DNA of 64,000 bases from an uncultured Dehalococcoidia bacterium (GTDB taxonomy: Bacteria > Chloroflexota > Dehalococcoidia > Lucifugimonadales > UBA3495): positions 31,416-95,415 of the forward strand of contig OY282494.1 in NCBI GenBank assembly GCA_958296385.1. The letters are read 5' to 3'. Positions 11,486 through 41,898 of this stretch are shown piece by piece (position 1 is the first letter of the stretch; the number at the start of each line of letters is the position of its first letter). The notes under the pieces are model-generated. The model had not been told where the DNA came from. It saw only the letters and a list, made by a program, of their open reading frames with translations, and searched no databases. The position numbers and the translations under genes were made by a program.

Positions 11486-12082
11486 TCAGCCGCCAATCCC
11501 CAGTTCGGCCTGCATATCGGCTACCGCCTGATTGCGGGTTTTGCGCTGCCATTGCGGGCGGTTGTTGATTGGCTCGTTGATGATTTCCGGGTCTATCTTG
11601 AGCGCTACGAACACCGGGCCCGGCTGGCCGAGAATCTCCTCAATCTGATTGGCGAAATCCTCCAGATTGTCAATGGCGTAGGTAGCCGGATAGCCGCAGC
11701 CCTGGGCAACCGTTTCGTAGGCCATCGTGTCGGCGTTCGGCACGGGCTGGCCGCCGGTGGTGGCATAGACCCCGTTGTCCAGCATAAAGTGGTACAGGTT
11801 GGCCGGCGCCTTCTCCGCAATGGTGGGCAGCGCGCCCATCCCCATCAGCACGTCACCCTCCGAGTCGAACAGCACCACCCGCTGGTTAGGCAAGGCCAGG
11901 GCCAGCCCCAGGGCAAACGAAGCGTGGCCGCCCATGGCCGGGTCGCCCAGCGGCAAATCCCGCTCCGGCTGCTCGCTCAGCTCCACCCAGAACCGCCCGC
12001 CGCGCCCCGGTATCACGATAGCATCGCCCCGCTGCCGGTTGAAAACTTCCAGCATCTCCGCCGTTTTCATCATATTAGTCAC
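11486..12082 (-). CDS. ThDP-dependent decarboxylase beta subunit, sulfopyruvate decarboxylase (ComE)-like
   Basis: PP-binding type sequence ...VVLFDSEGDVLMGMGALPTIA...FMLDNGVYATTGGQ. It is paired with the alpha-like gene upstream. Confidence 0.7.
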   Translation of the reverse strand: MTNMMKTAEMLEVFNRQRGDAIVIPGRGGRFWVELSEQPERDLPLGDPAMGGHASFALGLALALPNQRVVLFDSEGDVLMGMGALPTIAEKAPANLYHFMLDNGVYATTGGQPVPNADTMAYETVAQGCGYPATYAIDNLEDFANQIEEILGQPGPVFVALKIDPEIINEPINNRPQWQRKTRNQAVADMQAELGIGG

Positions 12083-12154
12083 TTCCTCGCTGATTGGATC
12101 CCCTATGATTGGCTCCCCTGTCCCATCGGGAAAGGGGCCGGATGCCGGCCGTCG

Positions 12155-12664
12155 CTACCGGCTTACGTTAAACCCGTGATATTCGTCGCCCACCAGCACC
12201 GCCACCGGCCGCTTTTCCCGCTGCGCCTCGGCGAACGCCACCGATATGCGGTCGGCGTCCTCGTCCGATTCCACCAGATAGTAGTTGATGTTGAAAGCGT
12301 GCAGAAACCGCTCGGTGTAAAACGCGGCGGTATCGGTGATGACGCCGTGCCGCGTCCACCCCCGATAGCCCACCATCATCACCACCGGCGTATTCATCCC
12401 CAGCCCCCAGCCCCGCAGCGAATCGCCCGACTCCATCATCCCGGTATTCTGGATGAGAATAACCGGCTTTTGCCCCCCGGCGGCCAGGCCGGCCGCAGTG
12501 GAGAACGCATGGCCCTCCCGGCTCACCGGCACCAGGTCAATGGACGGTTCGTCGCGCATCAGCACGTAAAGAAAGTTAGTTTCGCTGTCCGGCAGCCAAA
12601 CCACGTGCGTAACGCCATTATTCTTCAACTCCGCCAGCACCCGCGCCGGGCTCAACTCCGCCAT
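12155..12664 (-). CDS. ThDP-dependent decarboxylase alpha subunit, sulfopyruvate decarboxylase (ComD)-like
   Basis: PYR-domain type sequence ...VVWLPDSETNFLY...VSREGHAFSTAAGLAAGGQKPVILIQNTG. Confidence 0.7.
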   Translation of the reverse strand: MAELSPARVLAELKNNGVTHVVWLPDSETNFLYVLMRDEPSIDLVPVSREGHAFSTAAGLAAGGQKPVILIQNTGMMESGDSLRGWGLGMNTPVVMMVGYRGWTRHGVITDTAAFYTERFLHAFNINYYLVESDEDADRISVAFAEAQREKRPVAVLVGDEYHGFNVSR

Positions 12665-14226: not shown

Positions 14227-14658
14227 ATGACCAAAACTATACTGCCGGCGGCCCTGCTCGCCATCCTGCTGCTGCTGGCCTGCGCGCCGGCCGCCACCAC
14301 CGCCGATAAATCCTGCCCGGAGGGGTTTGACTACGTGGTGGAGTACAACCTCTTTTTCGGGCTGGACGACAGCGCCGGCAACCGGGTCAGCGAGCCCGAG
14401 TGGCAGGCTTTCCTGGAGGACACCATCACCCCCCGTTTCCCCGCCGGCCTCACCGTCATTGACGTCAAAGGCCAGTGGCAGGAACCCGACGGCGGCATCC
14501 AGCGCGAGAACACCATCCTGGTGCTGGGCCTGCTCGACCCGCCCGGCGGCGACGGCCTGCGTCTAATCAACGAAATATCCGCTGAATTCGTCAGCCGTTT
14601 CAATCAAGACCCGGTCTTTCGCGTCATCAACGAAGTTTGCGCCGGGCTATCCGGCTGA
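14227..14658 (+). CDS. Small lipoprotein, DUF3574-like
   Basis: Signal peptide with lipobox LLLAC. The core YNLFFGLDD..VSEPEWQAFLEDTITPRFPAGLTVIDVKGQW resembles DUF3574. Confidence 0.6.
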   Translation: MTKTILPAALLAILLLLACAPAATTADKSCPEGFDYVVEYNLFFGLDDSAGNRVSEPEWQAFLEDTITPRFPAGLTVIDVKGQWQEPDGGIQRENTILVLGLLDPPGGDGLRLINEISAEFVSRFNQDPVFRVINEVCAGLSG

Positions 14659-31920: not shown

Positions 31921-32637
31921 TTACGCTTGTCCAGGCCCAAGCAACGCTAGGGCGGCGCTGGCCGCTTCCGTTTCGGCGGCCGCCTTGCTGCGTCCGGTGC
32001 CGGCGCCCAGCACGCCAGCATCGCCAACCACCTCTACGGTGAACTGCCTTTGATGCGGCGGCCCGGCCATCTCCACTACGCGGTAGGTAGGCGGCGCCTG
32101 TCCGTTGGCCTGCAACAATTCCTGCAAGTCGGTCTTGGGGTTGTGCGGACGCCAGTCCGGATGGCAGGTTGCCTCAATCTCGGCGGCCATCACCCGCAAG
32201 ATGAACCGCCGCACGACGGCATACCCGGCGTCCAGGTAGATGGCGGCGATGACGGATTCCATCACGTCGCCTAGCACCGATTGGCTGGCCCGCCCGCCGG
32301 TGGTCGCCGAGCCGTAGCCCAGCCGCACGTAGTCGGCCAGACCCAATCGTTGGGCAACGGCGGCCAGCCCCTGCTGGCTCAAAAGCGTCGTCCAGCGCCG
32401 GGTCAACCCCCCCTCATCGCAATCGGGCAGCCGGTGATACAGCTCCTCGCTAACCACCAGCCGGGCCACCACGTCGCCCAGAAACTCCAGCCGCTCGTAG
32501 GATTCACGGGCATCGCCGGAGTGTTCGTGGACGTAAGAACGATGCGTCAAAGCTTGACGCAATAAGCCCCGGTCCTGAAAGTTCAGGCCCAGGGCTTGTT
32601 CGAGCTCTGCGACTGGCCGATGCCCGATGGCAAGCAT
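31921..32637 (-). CDS. rnc: Ribonuclease III
   Basis: ...LTHRSYVHE...ERLEFLGDVV... followed by a C-terminal dsRBD. ATG 32637 was chosen because the upstream track extension overlaps the neighbouring gene. Confidence 0.9.
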   Translation of the reverse strand: MLAIGHRPVAELEQALGLNFQDRGLLRQALTHRSYVHEHSGDARESYERLEFLGDVVARLVVSEELYHRLPDCDEGGLTRRWTTLLSQQGLAAVAQRLGLADYVRLGYGSATTGGRASQSVLGDVMESVIAAIYLDAGYAVVRRFILRVMAAEIEATCHPDWRPHNPKTDLQELLQANGQAPPTYRVVEMAGPPHQRQFTVEVVGDAGVLGAGTGRSKAAAETEAASAALALLGPGQA

Positions 32638-32659: not shown

Positions 32660-33298
32660 TTAGGAGCGGACACCCTCATACGGCCAGGGCGGGGAAGGCC
32701 GCTTGACCTCGCCCACGTGCTTGTGGTCGGACACCATCTCGACCAGGTTGTCGTAGATGGAGCCGGACTCTTCCGCCGACGGAATGAACATCTTGACGAA
32801 GGCGGAGTTGCCGTTGGGGAACACGTAGAGCGGCACGCCGAAAGCGCCGTGGACTTCCACCGCCTCGGTATGGCTCTCGCCAATCTCCTTCAGCACTTCG
32901 GGGTCGGCCAGGTCTTCGGCGAACTGGCCCATATCGACACCGGAAGCCTCGGCGACGGCGTTGATAGCGTCGGCGTCGGTCAGGTCGATACGGTCTTCGT
33001 GCCGGGCCCGCAGCAGGTTGATAAAGAACTTGTCAAAGACCTCGGGCCCCTGCCGCTGAGCGGCCACGCCGGCGCGCAGTTCCAGCAGGGTATTGTCCGC
33101 GTCGTCCTGCTCCCAGTACTTGAAGTTGTCGCTGTCGGCCTTGTTGTTGTCGTAGTTAACCTGCACCAGCGAGAACGGCTTCAGGTCAACGTTAATCTCG
33201 TGCTCCGTAGTCTCGCGAACTTTCGCCCACCACATGGCAGCGTTGTACACGAAGGGTCAACGGAAATCGTAAAAGCAAAGGAAATCGGCCTCGGCCAT
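32660..33298 (-). CDS. DsbA/HCCA-isomerase-like thioredoxin-fold protein with in-frame TGA (33257..33259) at the redox-site position; selenoprotein candidate or nonsense pseudogene
   Basis: ATG 33298 with RBS GGAGGTG. The N-terminus reads MAEADFLCFYDFR-TGA-PFVYNA and the C-terminal part contains HGAFGVPLYVF, typical of the family. Confidence 0.55.
33212..33253 (-). promoter_or_regulatory. Hand-drawn imperfect stem-loop 4 nt downstream of the in-frame UGA (possible SECIS)
   Basis: Lower stem UUCGUG.AC / GU.CGCGAG, upper stem CGCU.CC / G.GGGCG, apical loop AUGUG. Not energy-evaluated. Confidence 0.25.
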
Positions 33299-33438
33299 TA
33301 TGCCACCTCCCCGGTTTGACGGATGGTTGGTCGGATGATTGACTGACGGACGCAGCCGGCTTGCAACGTCCTTGTTGCCCAGATTGTAGCACACCCGGCC
33401 CCCGGCGTCACTGCAATCCGGGCCAGCCGGCGTTCAGA

Positions 33439-33468
33439 ATGACAAAAGGGGCGTAAGTTCCCTATAAT
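33439..33468 (+). promoter_or_regulatory. Putative promoter ATGACA-18-TATAAT
   Basis: Consensus -10 hexamer ~40 nt upstream of the nitroreductase ATG. Confidence 0.45.
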
Positions 33469-33509
33469 CGGCGGGTGCCAATCGCATATCAATCAGGGAG
33501 GGTTTTGTT

Positions 33510-34115: not shown

Positions 34116-34218
34116 CATCCCGCGCCCCGGAAACGCCGGGATGCGCTATACTGTCCGGCGGCAATCCATCCAGCAATCCATCTGCCAATCCATCCATCCT
34201 GCAAGGAGCCATCCGTCT

Positions 34219-34725
34219 ATGCCCTGGGCTGAAACTATCGTTGACACTCTCAAAAAGTGGGACACGTCGCTCATCGCCTACGTCCCCGATATATCCATTG
34301 ACCGGGTTACCAGCATCATTGACGCCGACCCTTACTTCAGCCTGGTGTCCTGCACCCGTGAGGAGGAGGCCGTTGGCGTGGCAGTGGGCAGCTATGCGGT
34401 GGGGCGCAACGCCGCCGTCTTTATGCAGTCCAGCGGGTTCGGCAACAGCGTCAACGCCATCGCCAGCCTGTGCCTGCCGGCGCGCACGCCCATTCCCATC
34501 TTTATGAACCTGCGCGGGCAGGTGGGCGAGTTCAACATCGCCCAGGTCGCCATGGGCCGCAACACCACGCCCATCCTCGACCTGTTCGGCATCGCCCACT
34601 ACACCATCGAGAGCGAGGATCGGATGGACACGCTGCTGGACGGGATAATGAAACTGTGCCACGCCCACCGCAACCCGGTGGCGGTTTGTATGACGCCGAT
34701 GCTGCACGGAGGCAAAATTGCTTAG
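34219..34725 (+). CDS. ThDP-dependent decarboxylase alpha subunit (ComD-like), second pair
   Basis: ...LIAYVPDISIDRV...CTREEEAVGVAVGSYAVGRNAAVFMQSSG. RBS AAGGAG lies 10 nt upstream. Confidence 0.7.
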   Translation: MPWAETIVDTLKKWDTSLIAYVPDISIDRVTSIIDADPYFSLVSCTREEEAVGVAVGSYAVGRNAAVFMQSSGFGNSVNAIASLCLPARTPIPIFMNLRGQVGEFNIAQVAMGRNTTPILDLFGIAHYTIESEDRMDTLLDGIMKLCHAHRNPVAVCMTPMLHGGKIA

Positions 34726-35275
34726 GTTTGACGCCACCCAACTGGTACTGCGCCACGCCGGGGACAGCCCGGTCGTGGGCAACCTGGGGCCCACCAGCGA
34801 CGAGCTGTATCACGCCGGCCACCGGGACCGCAATTTCTACACCTACGGCAGCATGGGCCTGTGCTCGTCAATCGCGCTGGGGATGGCCCTGTCCACCGAC
34901 GACAAAGTAATATCGCTGGACGGCGACGGCTCGCTGCTGATGAACCTGGGCGCCATCGCCACCATCGGGCGGGAGAATCCGCCCAACCTGGTGGTAGTAG
35001 TTTGGGACAACGAAGCCTGGGGGCAAACCGGCGGCCAACCCAGCCACACCGCCACCAACACCGACCTGGCAGCAGTAGCCCAATCCTGCGGCATCACCAA
35101 AACCGCCACCGTAAGCGACCTGGAAACGCTGGAAGAGGCAGTCTCACAAGCAATGACGGAGCCGGGGCCATGGTTCATAGTAGCCAAAATTGAGGAAGCG
35201 GAAGAATATATGCCGGTAGCCCCGGTAGAACCGGAGTTCACCCTGTATCGGTTCAGAAACACCTACGTGGAGTGA
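34718..35275 (+). CDS. ThDP-dependent decarboxylase beta subunit (ComE-like), second pair
   Basis: TTG start overlaps the alpha subunit stop, with GGAGG 6 nt upstream. ThDP motif LDGDGSLLMNLG...WDNEAWGQTGGQ. Confidence 0.7.
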   Translation: MLRFDATQLVLRHAGDSPVVGNLGPTSDELYHAGHRDRNFYTYGSMGLCSSIALGMALSTDDKVISLDGDGSLLMNLGAIATIGRENPPNLVVVVWDNEAWGQTGGQPSHTATNTDLAAVAQSCGITKTATVSDLETLEEAVSQAMTEPGPWFIVAKIEEAEEYMPVAPVEPEFTLYRFRNTYVE

Positions 35276-37329
35276 CGCGGCCGGCCGAAAGCACCGCACC
35301 CATGCTCTCCCGCCGCCCGCTGGCCCGGTTCCGGCCCGGCCGCTTTACCCTGCTGCTGGCCGGCATTGCCGTGCTGGGCGCGGCCCTCGTGCTGGCGCGG
35401 GAGGTTACTTACGGGGTGGCGCTATCGTGGGATTCCGTAGAGTACATCGGCGTGGCCGGGAGCCTGCTGGCAGGGGACGGTTTTACGCGGTTCTTTGGGG
35501 GCGTTTATAAGGCGTTTCCCCCGCTGTATCCCGTGCTGCTGGCGGCGGGCAGCCTTTTCCTGTTTGACCCGCGCGACGTCGCCGGGCCGCTGAACGCCGT
35601 CATCTTTGGGCTGATTATTTTCGTTGCCGGACGTTACCTGCGGCTCCGCCTGCAATCCCGGTTCCTGGTCGGTTGGGCCTGCCTGGTCATAGCTCTAGCC
35701 ATCCCACTGACTGAGATTGCATCCCATGCGATGTCCGAAACGACGTTCATCCTGCTGGCAATCCTCGCTCTAATCCAGACCGATGCGTTCCTGATCGACG
35801 GCAAACGTTCCGCTTTGCTGTGGGCGGCGGCGTTCACCGCTCTGGCCTGTCTGACGCGCTTTATGGGCGTTACGGTGCTGGCTGCCATAGTGCTGCTGCT
35901 GCTTTGCCAGCGCGGCATAGCCCTGCCGGACAAGGCAAAACGCATCGCCGTCTATGCGCTGATTGCGGCAACGCCGGTCGGCCTGTGGATACTGCGGACT
36001 TTCCTGCTCACCGGAACGCCGACCGGAACGAGAGGCCGGACGTTTTACTCCCTGCCGGAGATTCTGGACGGAATGTTAGACGTCGTCGTCAAGCAGGGTT
36101 CCCTGGATTTGCAGTTGGGGGACGCTGCGTTTATCCCCGTAGTCGGGTTAGCCGGCCTCAGCCTGCTGGCGCTGGCGGCGGCGGTTTGCTACACATTCGT
36201 CCGCGCGCTCCCGCCGGGCGATACCTGGACCAATCGGCGTCCCTTTTACATATTTGGCGGGTTTGGACTGGTGTACCTCATCTTACTTACGGTAGCGATG
36301 CTGTTGGGAAACACTTGGGACGGGGTGCAGCCCAGATTCCTGACCCCGGTGTACATTCCGCTCCTGTTTGCGGCGCTATTTGTGATTGACCAGTCCTGGA
36401 GTTATGTACGGGAGCGCAGGCAGTCGGCAACTGATGGCAGATTGTCAGCAACAGAACGAATGCACGAGAGGGGGCAGCAATGGCCGAGTCTGCTGGCTGC
36501 CAGCATAGTCATCCCGCTTTCCCTGATACTGGTTCATCAGTCGGTGTTGCAGGCCGGCGCAATAACTGAGGCGAATGAGGGCGCCAACCTGGGGTATGAC
36601 GGCAAAAGATGGACGGATTCAGAAACCCTGCAATACGTCCGAGAGTCAGCCCTGACCGGAATGATATTCAGCAACGACGCGGCGGCCACCTATATTCATA
36701 CCGACCTCCCCGCAAAGCATCGCTATTGGTCCTGTACAAATGGCAAACTGCAATCGCAACTACCGGCGGAAGGCGTTGAGGATGGCATTGCCGTCCACGG
36801 TGTTTGGTTCTACAACAGGTGTGGCGAGAGCGACTCGCTCACCCCCGCCGACTTGCGGACAACGCCAGGGCTGGAGCCGGTGGCAAAGCTGAGCGACGGC
36901 GCTATCTTCAAAGTTAACCGGAATTACGACCCCGCCAGTGCGCTGCGTGCGGAGTACGCAGCCATAGCATCCGGCGAACCCCTAATCCGTTCCGATTTCG
37001 TCGTTTATCTCAATGGACGCACCATGCACTACATCAGGGACACGTGCCGGGAGCAGGACACGACGGCAATGTTCTTTCTCCACGTCACCCCATCGGACGC
37101 GAATGACTTGCCGGCCCACCGCAAGCAGTACGGCTTTGACCACCACGACTTTAGCTTTAATCAATACGGCCTGATGTTCGACGGCAAGTGCTGGGCAGAG
37201 CGCATACTGCCGCAGTACGACATCGCCGCCATCCGCACCGGCCAGTACGTTCTCGAGGCCGGCGATTTCAACAACCTCTGGGAGGCGGAATTCCCCTTTA
37301 TGCCCGGGCAAGAAGGAACGCCGCAATAG
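35272..37329 (+). CDS. GT-C-type polytopic membrane glycosyltransferase-like protein (ArnT/PMT-like) with conserved C-terminal module, paralog 1
   Basis: There are >=10 hydrophobic segments. The first-loop motif is WDSVEY...GDGF and the C-terminal ~110 aa are shared with paralogs 2-4. GTG 35272 overlaps the upstream TGA; ATG 35302 is an alternative start. Confidence 0.7.
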   Translation: MTRPAESTAPMLSRRPLARFRPGRFTLLLAGIAVLGAALVLAREVTYGVALSWDSVEYIGVAGSLLAGDGFTRFFGGVYKAFPPLYPVLLAAGSLFLFDPRDVAGPLNAVIFGLIIFVAGRYLRLRLQSRFLVGWACLVIALAIPLTEIASHAMSETTFILLAILALIQTDAFLIDGKRSALLWAAAFTALACLTRFMGVTVLAAIVLLLLCQRGIALPDKAKRIAVYALIAATPVGLWILRTFLLTGTPTGTRGRTFYSLPEILDGMLDVVVKQGSLDLQLGDAAFIPVVGLAGLSLLALAAAVCYTFVRALPPGDTWTNRRPFYIFGGFGLVYLILLTVAMLLGNTWDGVQPRFLTPVYIPLLFAALFVIDQSWSYVRERRQSATDGRLSATERMHERGQQWPSLLAASIVIPLSLILVHQSVLQAGAITEANEGANLGYDGKRWTDSETLQYVRESALTGMIFSNDAAATYIHTDLPAKHRYWSCTNGKLQSQLPAEGVEDGIAVHGVWFYNRCGESDSLTPADLRTTPGLEPVAKLSDGAIFKVNRNYDPASALRAEYAAIASGEPLIRSDFVVYLNGRTMHYIRDTCREQDTTAMFFLHVTPSDANDLPAHRKQYGFDHHDFSFNQYGLMFDGKCWAERILPQYDIAAIRTGQYVLEAGDFNNLWEAEFPFMPGQEGTPQ

Positions 37330-37373
37330 CAGTGGTAGAATAACCACCCCGCAACCTACCAAACCACTGCGCC

Positions 37374-39464
37374 GTGCGAACTTTACTTCCAGCCCACCGC
37401 ATCTATTTCATCATTGCCCTCCTGCCCTGGCTGGCGCTGCTGGGCTGGTTGGCATCGGTGTCGTGGTTTCTCACCGACGACGCCTTTATCAGCTTTCGCT
37501 ACGTCCGCAACCTGCTGGAAGGGCACGGCCTCGTTTTCAACGTCGGCGAGCGGGTTGAGGGCTACTCCAACTTCCTGTGGGTGCTGGAACTGGCCGCCGT
37601 TTGGGGCATCTTGGGCATCAAGCCCGAACACGCCGCCCCCTGGCTGTCGGTAATCTACACGGCGGCAACCATCGCCGCGCTGCTGTGGTGGGCGTGGCGC
37701 ACGCCGTCGCTGCGGTGCCGGGGATTGACGGCGTGGCTGGCCCTGGGGCTGGTGTGCAGCAGCGCCACCTTTGCCGTCTGGACATCCGGCGGAGGGCTGG
37801 AAACCCGGCAGTTCACTTTCTTTATAGTCGTAGCGGTAGTCTGCCTGGCCCTGTACCGCAACAACCAGTGGGCCCTGCTGACGGCATCGCTGAGCCTGGC
37901 CGCCGCGTCCCTGACCCGCCCGGAGGGCCCGCTGATTGCGGTTCTGTGCTTCGGCTGGTTCATCATTCAGCGGATGATTGACGCCGGCCGGCCCCGTCTT
38001 GACTGGCGGGAACTGGCTTTCCTGATAGTACCCTTTGCCGTCCTGATTGCCGGCCATTTCCTGTTCCGCTACGCCTACTACGGCGAATGGCTGCCCAACA
38101 CCTACTACGCCAAACACGTCCGCCCCTGGTACGAATCGGGATTCCGCTACCTCTGTGCGGCGGCCATTGAAACGGGGCTGTATCTGCTGCTGCCGCTGGC
38201 CGCCATCGCCCTGCGGGAACGCTGGCGGCAATACCGGGATGGCACCTACGCCCTGGTGCTGCTGATAATCGTGGTGCACATGGCCTACGTAATGCGGATT
38301 GGCGGCGACCATTTTGAGTACCGGCCGCTGGATTTCTACTGGCCACTGCTGGCGCTGCCGGCGGCAGTGGGGATTGTGCATCTGGGCGGCTGGGTTGCCG
38401 GCCAAGCGCAACGTATCCGGCCAATCGCACGGGTCAGGATATTATCAAGCCCGCCGGCGTGGGCGCTGCTGCTGTTCGTGCCCATCATTTTCTACTCGAG
38501 CGCAATGCAGGCGGCCCTGCTGTTTGAGGGGGCCAAGATTAACGAACGCATCTTTCAAATCCATATCGAGCTCGATGATGAGACCGCCAGCTGGCTGCGG
38601 TCCGCGCCGGGGATGCCCGCGCTGGCGGCAATCTCCAACGACTTGCGCGCTAGTCTTGTCCAGCAGAACGTGAATCTGCGGTTCGTCGAGCATCGCGAAT
38701 TCGCTGACAAAAGGATTGCGATATGGCAGCCCTACTCGAATATGGAACGGGGGCTAATTCCCGACGACGCGGTGATGACTACCGCCACCATCGGCATCCC
38801 ATACTATTATCTCCCGGAACTGACCGTCATTGACTATAATGGTCTGACCGACGCGACGATAGCGCGCAATCCGGTTACACACCCCAACCGAGAGCGCCAA
38901 ATGGCCCACGACCGTTCTCCGCCCCCCGGCTACCTGAAGCAGCGCGGCGTTAATATTGACCTTCATGGCCCGGCGGCCACTGTGGAGCAGGCGTTGCAAG
39001 CTGAATATGCCATGCCGGTGGGGCCCAACCTCTGGATGCCCTTTGAGTCCGACGACCCTGAGTGGGTCAGCTCCGCTTTTGCCGGACGCGACCTAATAGT
39101 GTCCAGCGATTACAATGCGGAGTTGACCAGGGGCAACACGCCGGCAATTCGTTCCCAATTCGACGTCCACCTTGTGGAGAACCGGCTGATCTACGTAAAG
39201 GAACAGTGCGGCCCGAACGACCTTGACGCCGCGTTTTTCCTCCACTTGCACCCGGTTGACGTGAACGACCTGCCCGACGACCGCAAGCAGCACGGTTTTG
39301 ACAACCGAGACTTCTACGAGGATAGTATCATCAGACTGGCTAACACCTGCCGGGCCATAGTTCTGCTACCGGAATACGACGTCGCCGAAATCAGAACCGG
39401 CCAGTTTATAGAAGTGGATGGCGGCTATAAGCACATCTGGGAGGGGGAAATCCGGCCGGAATGA
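37374..39464 (+). CDS. GT-C-type membrane glycosyltransferase-like protein, paralog 2
   Basis: First loop TDDAFISFRYVRNLLEGHGLVFNVGERVEGYSNFLW. The C-terminal module lies at 39153-39461. Confidence 0.7.
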   Translation: MRTLLPAHRIYFIIALLPWLALLGWLASVSWFLTDDAFISFRYVRNLLEGHGLVFNVGERVEGYSNFLWVLELAAVWGILGIKPEHAAPWLSVIYTAATIAALLWWAWRTPSLRCRGLTAWLALGLVCSSATFAVWTSGGGLETRQFTFFIVVAVVCLALYRNNQWALLTASLSLAAASLTRPEGPLIAVLCFGWFIIQRMIDAGRPRLDWRELAFLIVPFAVLIAGHFLFRYAYYGEWLPNTYYAKHVRPWYESGFRYLCAAAIETGLYLLLPLAAIALRERWRQYRDGTYALVLLIIVVHMAYVMRIGGDHFEYRPLDFYWPLLALPAAVGIVHLGGWVAGQAQRIRPIARVRILSSPPAWALLLFVPIIFYSSAMQAALLFEGAKINERIFQIHIELDDETASWLRSAPGMPALAAISNDLRASLVQQNVNLRFVEHREFADKRIAIWQPYSNMERGLIPDDAVMTTATIGIPYYYLPELTVIDYNGLTDATIARNPVTHPNRERQMAHDRSPPPGYLKQRGVNIDLHGPAATVEQALQAEYAMPVGPNLWMPFESDDPEWVSSAFAGRDLIVSSDYNAELTRGNTPAIRSQFDVHLVENRLIYVKEQCGPNDLDAAFFLHLHPVDVNDLPDDRKQHGFDNRDFYEDSIIRLANTCRAIVLLPEYDVAEIRTGQFIEVDGGYKHIWEGEIRPE

Positions 39465-39591
39465 GCCGGTAATCTCCCCCCTGCCAAAGCGGTTGCATCT
39501 GTTACGGATTATAGCGCATAGTACCAAACCGCCGCCCCGCCACAAGCGCATTTCCGCATCGCCCCGGCGCGGTTATCCAGGAATCAGGCAG

Positions 39592-41898
39592 ATGATAAAC
39601 AAACGGTGGATAAACATAATGCGGGGCCTGTTATCGACTGCCCCGCTGCGCCACGCTCTGTTCACCCTGTTCATCGCCGGCATCCTGTCCTACGGCGCCG
39701 GGTTCGCCGGTTATATGCTGGCCAAATTTGACCTCATCAACCTCATCCGCGAAATGAGCAATGATGATTCCTTCTACTATTTTCAGATAGCCTATCACCT
39801 GTCCGAGGGAAAGTTTTCCACCTTTGACGGCGGCATCACCCGCACCAACGGCTACCATCCCCTCTGGATGTTTGCCGTCACGCCGTTTTATTGGGTGTTT
39901 GACAAGGAATCCGCCCTGTTCGGCATCAAGGCTTTTGAGATTATGCTCGTTGCCGGGGCCGTTGCCTGTATTGCGACAGCGGCCCGGCTGGCGCGGCTGC
40001 CCTGGATTTTGCTTTTTGCGGCGCTGCCGCTGCTTTACGAGCATCGTGCCTCGTTTGGCGGGCTGGAAGCCGCCGCCGCGCTGTTTATGCTGGGGCTGTT
40101 TATGCTGGCCCTGATGCTCTATGCGCGCAATCCGGCCCGGTGGACTTGGCCGCTGGCCGCCGTTGCCTTTGCGCTGCCCTGGGTGCGGCTGGAGTACATC
40201 GCCATATCGATGGCGGCGACAGTGGTGTTGTGCGTCATTGAATGGTCGCGGCGGGAGCGGCCGGCCGGGGCGTGGTGGCGCAGCTTGATGCTTTCTGCCC
40301 CCTCCCAAGCGTTAGTTCTAATCGGCGGCGCAATCGCCGGCATCCTGGTCTATTTCCTCTACAATCGGTTGGTGTTTGGCGGCATCGTGCCGGTAAGCGG
40401 CGTTACCAAAGCCGCCTGGTCGCAGTTCAAGTGGGCGCAGGCCGGCGGGTACAGTTTTACGCAGAACTTCCGGGATGTGTTGCAGGTTCCGGTCTTTGAC
40501 TTTGAGCTGCTGGCTGCGTTGGCGATTTGCGCCGGCCTGCTGTTGGTCTGGTGGCTGGCCCGACGTTCTCGTGATGAACGGGATTGGCTGCTGCTGGTTT
40601 TTCTGGTAGGCGCGTTCGGCTTGGCCGTCGGCCATCTGTCAATGTTCGCGCAAACCGTGCTCACCGTGTATCCCACCAGCCAAGGGAAATTTCTCTGGTA
40701 TTTTGTACCGGCGTATCTGATGATGGCGCTGATTACTCCCGTAATCTGCTATGTTGCCATTTACTTCATTCGGCGTTGCATCGGGCCAAGATGGCGCCGC
40801 ACGGCCGGCCTGCTGAGCGTGAGCATCATCGCAGCCGGCGCGGTTTTCCTGCTGGCCAGGGCGGATTTCACTTATCCATTCTGGTTTGTTGAGAATTACA
40901 GTGCGATAACCAGGAATCACGATGAATGGGTTTCCTCTTTTTATGGCGGCGTGCAGGTTATGAACCGGGTGCTTCCCGATAACAGCGTGGTCGGCTCGTG
41001 GGACGCCGGCATCGTCGGGTACTTCTCCCGTTTTCCGGTGGTCAACCTGGACGGTTTGGTCAATTCCTACGACTATCTGCACGACACCGGAGTAGCGGAG
41101 GATGGCTATGCCAGCTGGAAAAATAAGTTCATTCCCCTTTACCGAGAGTTTGGAATAACCGGCTTTGCCAATATTACGACGCAGCACTTTGCGGGCGACG
41201 TAATTTTGGAAACTTCGTCGCCGTCCCAGGGGGATCGTTTCTACATCTTTCCCGCCGAACCGCTGGACAACGCTGACACTGCGGAATGGTTCTGGCAGCG
41301 GATGGAGCCGCACTTCGCCTACCAGTCCGATGGCGTCGGCTTTATTGTGGATGGCCGGCTGGCGCAGGGGTTTGCCAGAAACTGCGCGCCGGGCGAGCTG
41401 GCGGTATGGGAATGGGGCGGGCCGGGCAACGTAGTCGGCATGAATTGGCACCGGAACGAATCGGGGCTGTGCATGGTCGATATGCTGCTGCCGCACCACG
41501 CCATGCCGCCGGTAGGGATTGCTGCGCTGTCGGCCAGCGATTACCTGGCGGCGCTGATTGGCAGCAGCGCGCCGGCAATCTCCTCCGACTACGCGGTCTA
41601 TCTCAAGAACAACCGGCTCATCTACGTAAATGAACAGTGCGGCGATGCCGACGTTGCCCGTGGTTTCTTTCTGCATTTGGACCCGGTTCGCCAGCTCGAC
41701 TTGCCGCGCCAACGCCGGCCCAACGGGTTTGACAACCTGGACTTCCGTTTTGCCTGGAACGGCCGCCAATTCGGAGAAATCTGCATCATAATCCGGCAGC
41801 TCCCGGATTATGACATCGCCGCAATCCGCACCGGCCAATTTGAGCGGGTGGGCGGCAACTTCAGTCACGTCTGGGAGGGTAAAATCCGGCCGGAATAA
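39592..41898 (+). CDS. GT-C-type membrane glycosyltransferase-like protein, paralog 3
   Basis: First loop NDDSFYYFQIAYHLSEGKFSTFDGGITRTNGYHPLW. The C-terminal module lies at 41584-41895. ATG 39592 was chosen over the track start, which overlaps paralog 2. Confidence 0.7.
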   Translation: MINKRWINIMRGLLSTAPLRHALFTLFIAGILSYGAGFAGYMLAKFDLINLIREMSNDDSFYYFQIAYHLSEGKFSTFDGGITRTNGYHPLWMFAVTPFYWVFDKESALFGIKAFEIMLVAGAVACIATAARLARLPWILLFAALPLLYEHRASFGGLEAAAALFMLGLFMLALMLYARNPARWTWPLAAVAFALPWVRLEYIAISMAATVVLCVIEWSRRERPAGAWWRSLMLSAPSQALVLIGGAIAGILVYFLYNRLVFGGIVPVSGVTKAAWSQFKWAQAGGYSFTQNFRDVLQVPVFDFELLAALAICAGLLLVWWLARRSRDERDWLLLVFLVGAFGLAVGHLSMFAQTVLTVYPTSQGKFLWYFVPAYLMMALITPVICYVAIYFIRRCIGPRWRRTAGLLSVSIIAAGAVFLLARADFTYPFWFVENYSAITRNHDEWVSSFYGGVQVMNRVLPDNSVVGSWDAGIVGYFSRFPVVNLDGLVNSYDYLHDTGVAEDGYASWKNKFIPLYREFGITGFANITTQHFAGDVILETSSPSQGDRFYIFPAEPLDNADTAEWFWQRMEPHFAYQSDGVGFIVDGRLAQGFARNCAPGELAVWEWGGPGNVVGMNWHRNESGLCMVDMLLPHHAMPPVGIAALSASDYLAALIGSSAPAISSDYAVYLKNNRLIYVNEQCGDADVARGFFLHLDPVRQLDLPRQRRPNGFDNLDFRFAWNGRQFGEICIIIRQLPDYDIAAIRTGQFERVGGNFSHVWEGKIRPE

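Follow-up and report, generated by a model that had tools for sequence, protein, structure and literature searches.

An in-frame UGA at the catalytic position of a DsbA-like gene from an uncultured Dehalococcoidia bacterium very probably encodes selenocysteine

How should an in-frame TGA be read when it falls on the codon for the catalytic residue of a gene that is open on both sides of it? This question is raised by a DsbA-like gene on the minus strand of a stretch of 64,000 nucleotides from an uncultured Dehalococcoidia bacterium (contig OY282494.1, positions 31,416 to 95,415, GenBank assembly GCA_958296385.1), hereafter referred to as the window. An earlier note, made from the letters of the window alone, had proposed a selenoprotein, with a plain nonsense mutation as the alternative. 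We report that the UGA very probably encodes selenocysteine (Sec, or U in the motifs below) and that the gene would be an intact gene for a cytoplasmic DsbA-like selenoprotein. It is a validated member of the published DsbA-like selenoprotein family and does not represent a new kind.

The predicted coding sequence (CDS) covers positions 32660-33298 on the minus strand and comprises 212 codons, with a TAA stop at 32662-32660 and the TGA, the proposed Sec codon 14, at 33257-33259, corresponding to the nucleophile position at the N-terminus of helix alpha1. The mechanical list of open reading frames (ORFs) gives only 32660-33250, an ORF of 196 amino acids with a GTG start that is devoid of strand beta1 and of the active site. 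Reading the minus strand from further upstream gives MAEADFLCFYDFR-TGA(33259-33257)-PFVYNAAMWW, in frame with this ORF. On the DNA level GGAGGTG-gcata-ATG is followed by 12 further codons and then by TGA CCC TTC GTG TAC AAC, such that the Shine-Dalgarno-like GGAGGTG (33304-33310, minus strand) is separated from the ATG (33298-33296) by a 5-nt spacer. When the TGA is translated as Cys, the product of 212 residues matches the Pfam family DSBA (PF01323) from residue 9 (E=5.9e-16, 59.3 bits with a cut-off of 25.6), and its homologs can be aligned across residues 1-212, the full-length Cys forms being 210 amino acids long. Every sequence statement in the earlier note about ATG 33298, the ribosome binding site GGAGGTG, the TGA at 33257-33259 and the frame is correct, and its remark that the mechanical ORF misses the beta1/active-site motif agrees with a DSBA domain match that begins at residue 9.

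A search of a large protein collection returned 95 homologs. About 13 of these are full length (~210 amino acids) and read F-Y-D-F-R-C-P-F-V-Y-N-A, and about 75 start just past the motif, at MYNAA or MWL, as though all had been truncated at one point during gene calling; a full-length homolog annotated with Sec was not found among the 95. When the DNA of truncated homologs was inspected (92, 84, 61, 60, 48, 45 and 43% identity) a stop was present in frame at the column in question, in each case preceded by the conserved peptide YYDF(R/T) and an ATG. Likewise, the codon at this column is TGA in 12/12 metagenomic loci reaching down to 45% identity. Moreover, a scan of one genome per GTDB species gave 456 relatives, of which the best 80 were analysed for the TGA. 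These 80 are all Dehalococcoidia, SAR202 or sponge-associated Chloroflexota metagenome-assembled genomes (MAGs), and the TGA is present in each of them (80/80) in the context (Y/F)(Y/F)DFR-U-P(F/Y)VY. In Cys forms this codon is TGT or TGC (TGT in locus L015), which agrees with the earlier prediction of Cys or Sec at the nucleophile column; a Cys-form profile scan of the metagenomes gave one locus only. The TGA column also aligns to Cys24 of DR2335, a Deinococcus radiodurans protein discussed below.

These data bear directly on the possibility that the TGA is a plain nonsense mutation in a gene that has been pseudogenized or is being inactivated. The mechanical ORF list does break at the TGA, and other broken genes are present in the window according to the earlier note only. 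However, the same TGA recurs in all of the best 80 species-level genomes, whose sequences differ and which are hence no copies of a single assembly, and the 12 metagenomic loci, at identities from 45 to 94%, there are no frameshifts or further stops, both flanks of the TGA are under coding-type purifying selection, and a lesion would not be inherited unchanged across a class-level radiation. The probability that the gene is broken is, in our view, practically negligible.

The codons upstream of the TGA are, judging from their pattern of variation, translated and under coding-type purifying selection. In the 80 loci the entropy over the upstream 12 codons is 0.47, 0.40 and 1.10 at codon positions 1, 2 and 3, respectively, compared to ~1.9 at all positions 24-60 nt further upstream. 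In nearly every locus the distance from ATG to TGA is exactly 13 codons, and a loosely defined Shine-Dalgarno-like motif is present upstream of the equivalent ATG in 80/80 orthologous loci. Since the upstream codons vary mainly at third positions and the ATG is kept at a fixed distance, a pseudogene is ruled out, as is an internal start as the origin of the main product. An internal start is nevertheless what the database would suggest: gene callers pick such starts in ~75 clusters, and the GTG and ATG codons, together with the downstream hairpin (see below), could in principle serve re-initiation. Translation would then begin at GTG 33250 or ATG 33235, and the upstream 13 codons plus the TGA would constitute a separate, conserved regulatory unit, either a leader peptide or an upstream ORF. 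But the resulting protein would be without strand beta1 and without the nucleophile, both of which define the fold, the TGA falls on the catalytic Cys column, and homology of the upstream peptide to the beta1 and active-site segment of the Cys homologs and of DR2335 is seen at every residue. In addition, no Shine-Dalgarno-like motif precedes the internal starts in the window sequence, and taken together we consider a truncated product most unlikely.

In a neighbour-joining tree the Cys orthologs (P0019, P0022, P0026, P0028, P0029 and L015) form one clade that is nested among the Sec forms. This suggests a single Sec-to-Cys replacement rather than repeated gains of Sec from Cys.

If the UGA is decoded as Sec, a Sec insertion sequence (SECIS) element is expected downstream of it, and the RNA can indeed form a SECIS-like two-tier stem-loop. 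It occupies positions 33212-33253 (minus strand), its 5' end being 4 nt past the UGA; the lower stem is formed between 33253-33245 and 33220-33212, and the upper hairpin CGCUGCC-AUGU-GGUG(G)GCG (33224-33242, minus strand) exposes the apical loop AUGU (33235-33232) 21 nt after the UGA. Folding of the 51 nt 3' of the UGA gave this two-tier arrangement, with an internal loop between the lower stem and the upper hairpin, and the 42-nt stem-loop is the minimum-free-energy (MFE) structure of the segment, -13.1 kcal/mol. A stem-loop with the same borders had been drawn by hand in the earlier note, and it coincides with the predicted minimum-energy fold.

To follow the pairing through the family the structure was specified and then tested by pair counts, using 73 distinct sequences and, as control, 3' partners that had been slid along the alignment. 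For the whole structure 83.1% of the cells are paired versus 30-55% with slid partners, and for the upper hairpin the corresponding values are 85.9% and 27-61%. At the pair that closes the upper hairpin on its outer side (alignment columns 24-42), 46 sequences have C-G, 23 have U-A and 4 are unpaired. This pair links two synonymous third positions, one in an Asn codon and the other in an Ala, Ser or Thr codon, and on the neighbour-joining tree it has undergone at least two double switches. In one clade an Ala to Asn change (GCC to AAC) occurs together with the synonymous change CUG to UUG, and the result is a perfect 7-bp stem. Enumeration of all synonymous recodings of the peptide revealed that the real codons beat 80-99% of them for stability in most clades. 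In the clade to which the window belongs (the 'WW' clade, 30 sequences), the identical-codon fraction among pairs with the same residue is 0.92 at codons 15-27 compared to 0.62-0.71 elsewhere, and among 207 segments of 12 codons each, the one beginning at the UGA is the most frozen at synonymous sites (0.965 vs a gene mean of 0.70). The downstream RNA is conserved beyond the need of the protein and its base pairing is kept.

The criteria published for bacterial SECIS (bSECIS) elements are an apical loop of 3-9 nt, an upper stem of 4-16 bp, a location 16-37 nt after the UGA and an MFE ≤ -7.5 kcal/mol (PMC13188914). In the window a loop of 4 nt sits on a 7-bp upper stem with a single bulge, at a spacing of 21 nt, and the MFE lies between -13.1 and -13.7 kcal/mol. 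The MFE is ≤ -10.7 in all 73 sequences, and a loop of the allowed size, the 21-nt spacing and an MFE ≤ -7.5 are found in 73/73.

Decoding of UGA as Sec also has to be reconciled with the use of TGA as a stop codon. TGA is not reassigned in the window, because the UbiE-like methyltransferase gene and other genes end normally at TGA: many window genes with a high GC content at third codon positions terminate in this way, and for the UbiE-like protein the Pfam match ends three residues before the TGA. With respect to the Sec machinery, a TGA ortholog (L033) that is 85% identical resides on MPNC01000001.1 of the SAR202 bin87, with a GC content of 62.8% compared to 62.6% for the window. Annotation of bin87 includes COG1921 (SelA) three times and COG3276 (SelB) once, and both are present in all five SAR202 bins (Slaby et al. 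2017, Table S4). Furthermore, two Dehalococcoidia MAGs, with 49 and 46 selenoprotein genes, are among the ten most selenoprotein-rich bacteria in BSepDB (PMC13326102). There is accordingly good evidence for Sec decoding in the lineage, short of proof for the genome in hand.

It could still be argued that the UGA is read through as some other amino acid, Trp or Cys, either by near-cognate suppression or by reassignment of TGA, and that Sec is not involved. Some database gene calls do have W at this codon (P0023 and P0292), where pipelines have applied the TGA=Trp code. Yet TGA terminates many well-supported window genes at natural C-termini, the genuine full-length forms have Cys and never Trp, a conserved structured element lies just downstream of the UGA, and the annotation of related SAR202 genomes includes both SelA and SelB. 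Read-through with another residue is very unlikely on these grounds.

Six-frame TGA scans of the 64-kb window did not reveal a second convincing selenoprotein candidate. A DUF3574 protein (14227-14658, plus strand) ends with CAGLSG-TGA, and two further sense codons separate this TGA from the next stop; it is probably an ordinary stop.

Several observations weigh against Sec at this position. The larger ORFs of the 64-kb window include no selA, selB or selD, and the window contains no tRNA-Sec and no tRNA gene at all. The stability of the stem-loop alone does not exceed chance (z=-1.1, with 25/200 shuffles as stable or more; z=0.09 for the 68-nt span), and in the window's own 'WW' clade the codons have no advantage over synonymous recodings (weighted fraction 0.756, core -6.6 kcal/mol). 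RNAalifold, applied to the 73-sequence alignment, did not recover the hairpin unaided and returned only a trivial 3-bp helix, and Rfam gave no match either at the gathering threshold or at E ≤ 10. A small hairpin is also possible at the same place in the Cys-form gene L097, one of two Cys-form DNAs examined. Finally, the rule that a G should be present in the first two loop positions does not hold for the window, where the G of AUGU is at position 3, and in the family it holds only in clades with a GUGU loop (19/67 sequences); the consensus does not cover every bacterial selenoprotein gene (PMC13188914), the exceptions amounting to 12.6% in BSepDB. The comparative evidence, i.e. the TGA in 80/80 species together with the covariation in the hairpin, goes beyond chance.

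What kind of protein would this selenoprotein be? An AlphaFold model of the full-length Cys ortholog P0019, which is 58% identical, has DsbA architecture with a predicted local distance difference test (pLDDT) value of 91.2. In this model a strand (residues 6-10) leads to Cys14, positioned directly before a helix (15-30), and a conserved G-V-P-T (cis-Pro loop) precedes the strand at 157-159. The protein starts directly at strand beta1 and has no signal peptide. The family alignment contains a single nucleophile column and no other invariant Cys, and the motif is U-P-F-V, with neither CxxC nor UxxC; the second C/S that the earlier note had included in its motif is missing, since neither Cys nor Ser occupies that position. 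The wider family consists of 634 clusters in a set of 50%-identity representatives, and nearly all full-length members read C-P-x-(V/A/T/S), with many others starting after the motif. None of the NCBIfam models matches the protein.

The nearest solved relative, by sequence and by fold, is DR2335 of D. radiodurans (PDB 7DK9, native, and 7DKA, C24S), with a profile match of E=4e-23, a phmmer match of 1.9e-13 over residues 8-203 and template modelling (TM) scores of 0.79-0.80. Its motif F-D-F-L-C-P-Y-A-W aligns to F-Y-D-F-R-U-P-F-V-Y-N, and the two proteins share a C-terminal RP-x-P, the lack of a signal peptide and a single conserved nucleophile. DR2335 differs in having Cys and not Sec and is ~27% identical. 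The literature describes DR_2335 as DsbA-like and predicted to be cytoplasmic, with one conserved Cys and without functional or expression data (PMC8945050, PMC6300522). Rv2466c of Mycobacterium tuberculosis, a mycothiol-dependent reductase/nitroreductase (PF22234; PDB 4NXI, 4ZIL and 5XUR), resembles the window protein in fold (TM ~0.7), in being cytoplasmic and presumably in having a low-molecular-weight thiol as partner, but it has a CPWC dithiol motif, and the sequence similarity is low (E~1e-3, with a weak Pfam match of 27.3 vs 27 bits).

2-Hydroxychromene-2-carboxylate (HCCA) isomerase and glutathione S-transferase (GST) kappa are alike in having a DsbA-like fold into which a helical domain is inserted, and one catalytic residue in the corresponding place. 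They are distant (profile E=3e-6 for a putative HCCA isomerase and 6e-4 for GST kappa, TM 0.58-0.62, root-mean-square deviation 8-9 Å) and do not belong to the same subfamily; an identity as HCCA isomerase or GST kappa was rejected, the E-values and TM scores being too weak in comparison with DR2335. Of the label HCCA-isomerase-like in the earlier note, the DsbA fold therefore stands, whereas the HCCA subfamily does not, DR2335/Rv2466c-type proteins being closer. Classical DsbA and FrnE have a CxxC or UxxC pair that is absent from the window protein, and FrnE is more distant. On sequence and predicted structure, the window protein is a member of a cytoplasmic, single-nucleophile branch of DsbA-like proteins with DR2335 as the closest solved structure.

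DsbA-like selenoproteins were described in 2005 in the UxxC form, from nine Sargasso Sea sequences assigned to COG2761 (PMC1088965), and in 2016 they were counted in 41 organisms. A review from 2026 distinguishes form 1 (UxxC) and form 2 (DxxUP) (PMC13188914, citing PMC5029168). In common with these proteins the window protein has the PF01323 fold, the proposed Sec at the first CxxC-equivalent position near the N-terminus and a SECIS hairpin candidate directly downstream within the CDS. The window sequence, D-F-R-U-P, matches the pattern of form 2 and differs from form 1 in that it has no resolving Cys. The representative of form 2, MDP6049977.1, is named by NCBI as a member of the crotonase/enoyl-CoA hydratase family, which suggests a different architecture. 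We also noted a distant homolog with 43% identity, L012 (positions 2977-2979 on ERZ26166869:contig_2), which reads FDFG-U-PFC-YNA and has a U-x-x-C motif; its U-P-F-C fits form 1, and both published forms may be represented within one family.

On the basis of these comparisons we propose the following route from gene to function. Translation would start at ATG 33298, and the UGA at codon 14 would be decoded as Sec by SelB-GTP-Sec-tRNA(Sec), with SelB presumably recruited by the stem-loop inside the CDS, 4-45 nt downstream of the UGA. The product would be a 212-residue protein in which Sec14, in D-F-R-U-P-F-V at the N-terminus of helix alpha1, is the sole redox-active residue and no resolving Cys is available. 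It would most likely catalyse monoselenol thiol-disulfide exchange, with a disulfide or mixed disulfide as the target of Sec and a low-molecular-weight thiol resolving the selenenylsulfide formed, similar to the monothiol mechanism of glutaredoxin and mycoredoxin. Co-expression with RNase III, encoded by the next gene, would be part of this scheme.

A more detailed picture can be drawn, which we regard as unlikely to be right as a whole. According to this, the gene would be the selenium form of the DR2335-like family and a core, vertically inherited SAR202/Dehalococcoidia gene in an operon with RNase III, its product would reduce mixed disulfides as a monoselenol enzyme, together with a low-molecular-weight thiol that may be coenzyme A (CoA; protein de-CoAlation), and the AUGU hairpin would be a SECIS variant outside the consensus. 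The possible link to CoA is suggested because CoaE-DsbA-like fusions recur. We observed eight clusters of such fusions (P0220, P0225, P0274, P0364-P0369), which are ~415 amino acids long and have a Cys-form domain. CoaE is also fused to many unrelated domains, and the hint that the fusions give to CoA is weak.

The position of the TGA has consequences for annotation. Approximately three quarters of the family's database clusters are N-terminally truncated and some have Trp at the Sec codon, with the consequence that hundreds of marine and sponge-associated Dehalococcoidia/SAR202 genomes are annotated without the active site of this conserved redox protein. As a case in point, P0023 (locus L016:352-354), a cluster of 147 member sequences, reads YYDFR-W-PFVY where the codon in the DNA is TGA, and P0292 likewise has Trp at the Sec codon; the TGA=Trp code has evidently been applied to short contigs, leaving mistranslated proteins in the databases. 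Our analysis further adds a well-supported candidate for a selenoprotein in which Sec stands alone, with no Cys to resolve it, and gives a strong pointer to the catalytic residue of the DR2335-like family. The natural SECIS variants, with covarying stems and an AUGU or GUGU loop, could help to refine models of bacterial SECIS elements. No new mechanism is revealed.

In the window the selenoprotein gene is followed by rnc (RNase III; 31921-32637, minus strand, supported by Pfam matches), which begins 22 nt after the selenoprotein stop. The order DsbA-like gene followed by rnc is kept in all related loci inspected, and the two genes are probably co-transcribed, judging from their arrangement. 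In most loci of the relatives the order DsbA-like, rnc, ftsY and DUF2298, the last encoding a membrane protein, recurs; this extended order is absent in the window and in its closest relatives, L001 and L002. Downstream of rnc the window instead has the UbiE-like methyltransferase gene in convergent orientation and a ubiquinone-type cluster (UbiD, UbiA and a flavoprotein).

On the upstream side a nitroreductase gene and a split thiamine pyrophosphate (TPP)-enzyme pair are located in divergent orientation beyond a 211-nt spacer. Within this spacer a promoter-like site, GTGACG-17-TACAAT (33383-33411, minus strand, TG-extended), is present ~85 nt upstream of the ATG and is a weak consensus match only. 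On the plus strand the spacer contains ATGACA-18-TATAAT, which agrees with the consensus at 11/12 positions, such that promoter-like matches face both ways (33383-33492). A promoter scan of the spacer gave three sites compared to 0.4 expected from shuffled sequences. As to other neighbours, an OGG/HhH-GPD-DsbA-like fusion (P0382) mirrors a neighbour gene in the loci L006, L012 and L015.

The TPP-enzyme pair next to the selenoprotein gene (34141-35275, plus strand) is one of two split pairs in the window, the other being at 11486-12664 (minus strand). In both, the N- and C-terminal TPP-binding domains are encoded adjacent to each other and resemble sulfopyruvate/phosphonopyruvate decarboxylase subunits, and the pair at 34141-35275 is conserved beside the selenoprotein gene in close relatives (L001-L005). 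It is followed on the same strand by three large ORFs (35272-41898; 685, 696 and 826 amino acids) that match no Pfam family at E ≤ 1e-5, the first of which is rich in hydrophobic segments. Finally, at 2801-4765 (plus strand) a 654-amino-acid ORF has two separate matches to each of Abhydrolase_3, BD-FAE and COesterase, and it looks like a tandem duplication or fusion of two esterase/lipase domains.

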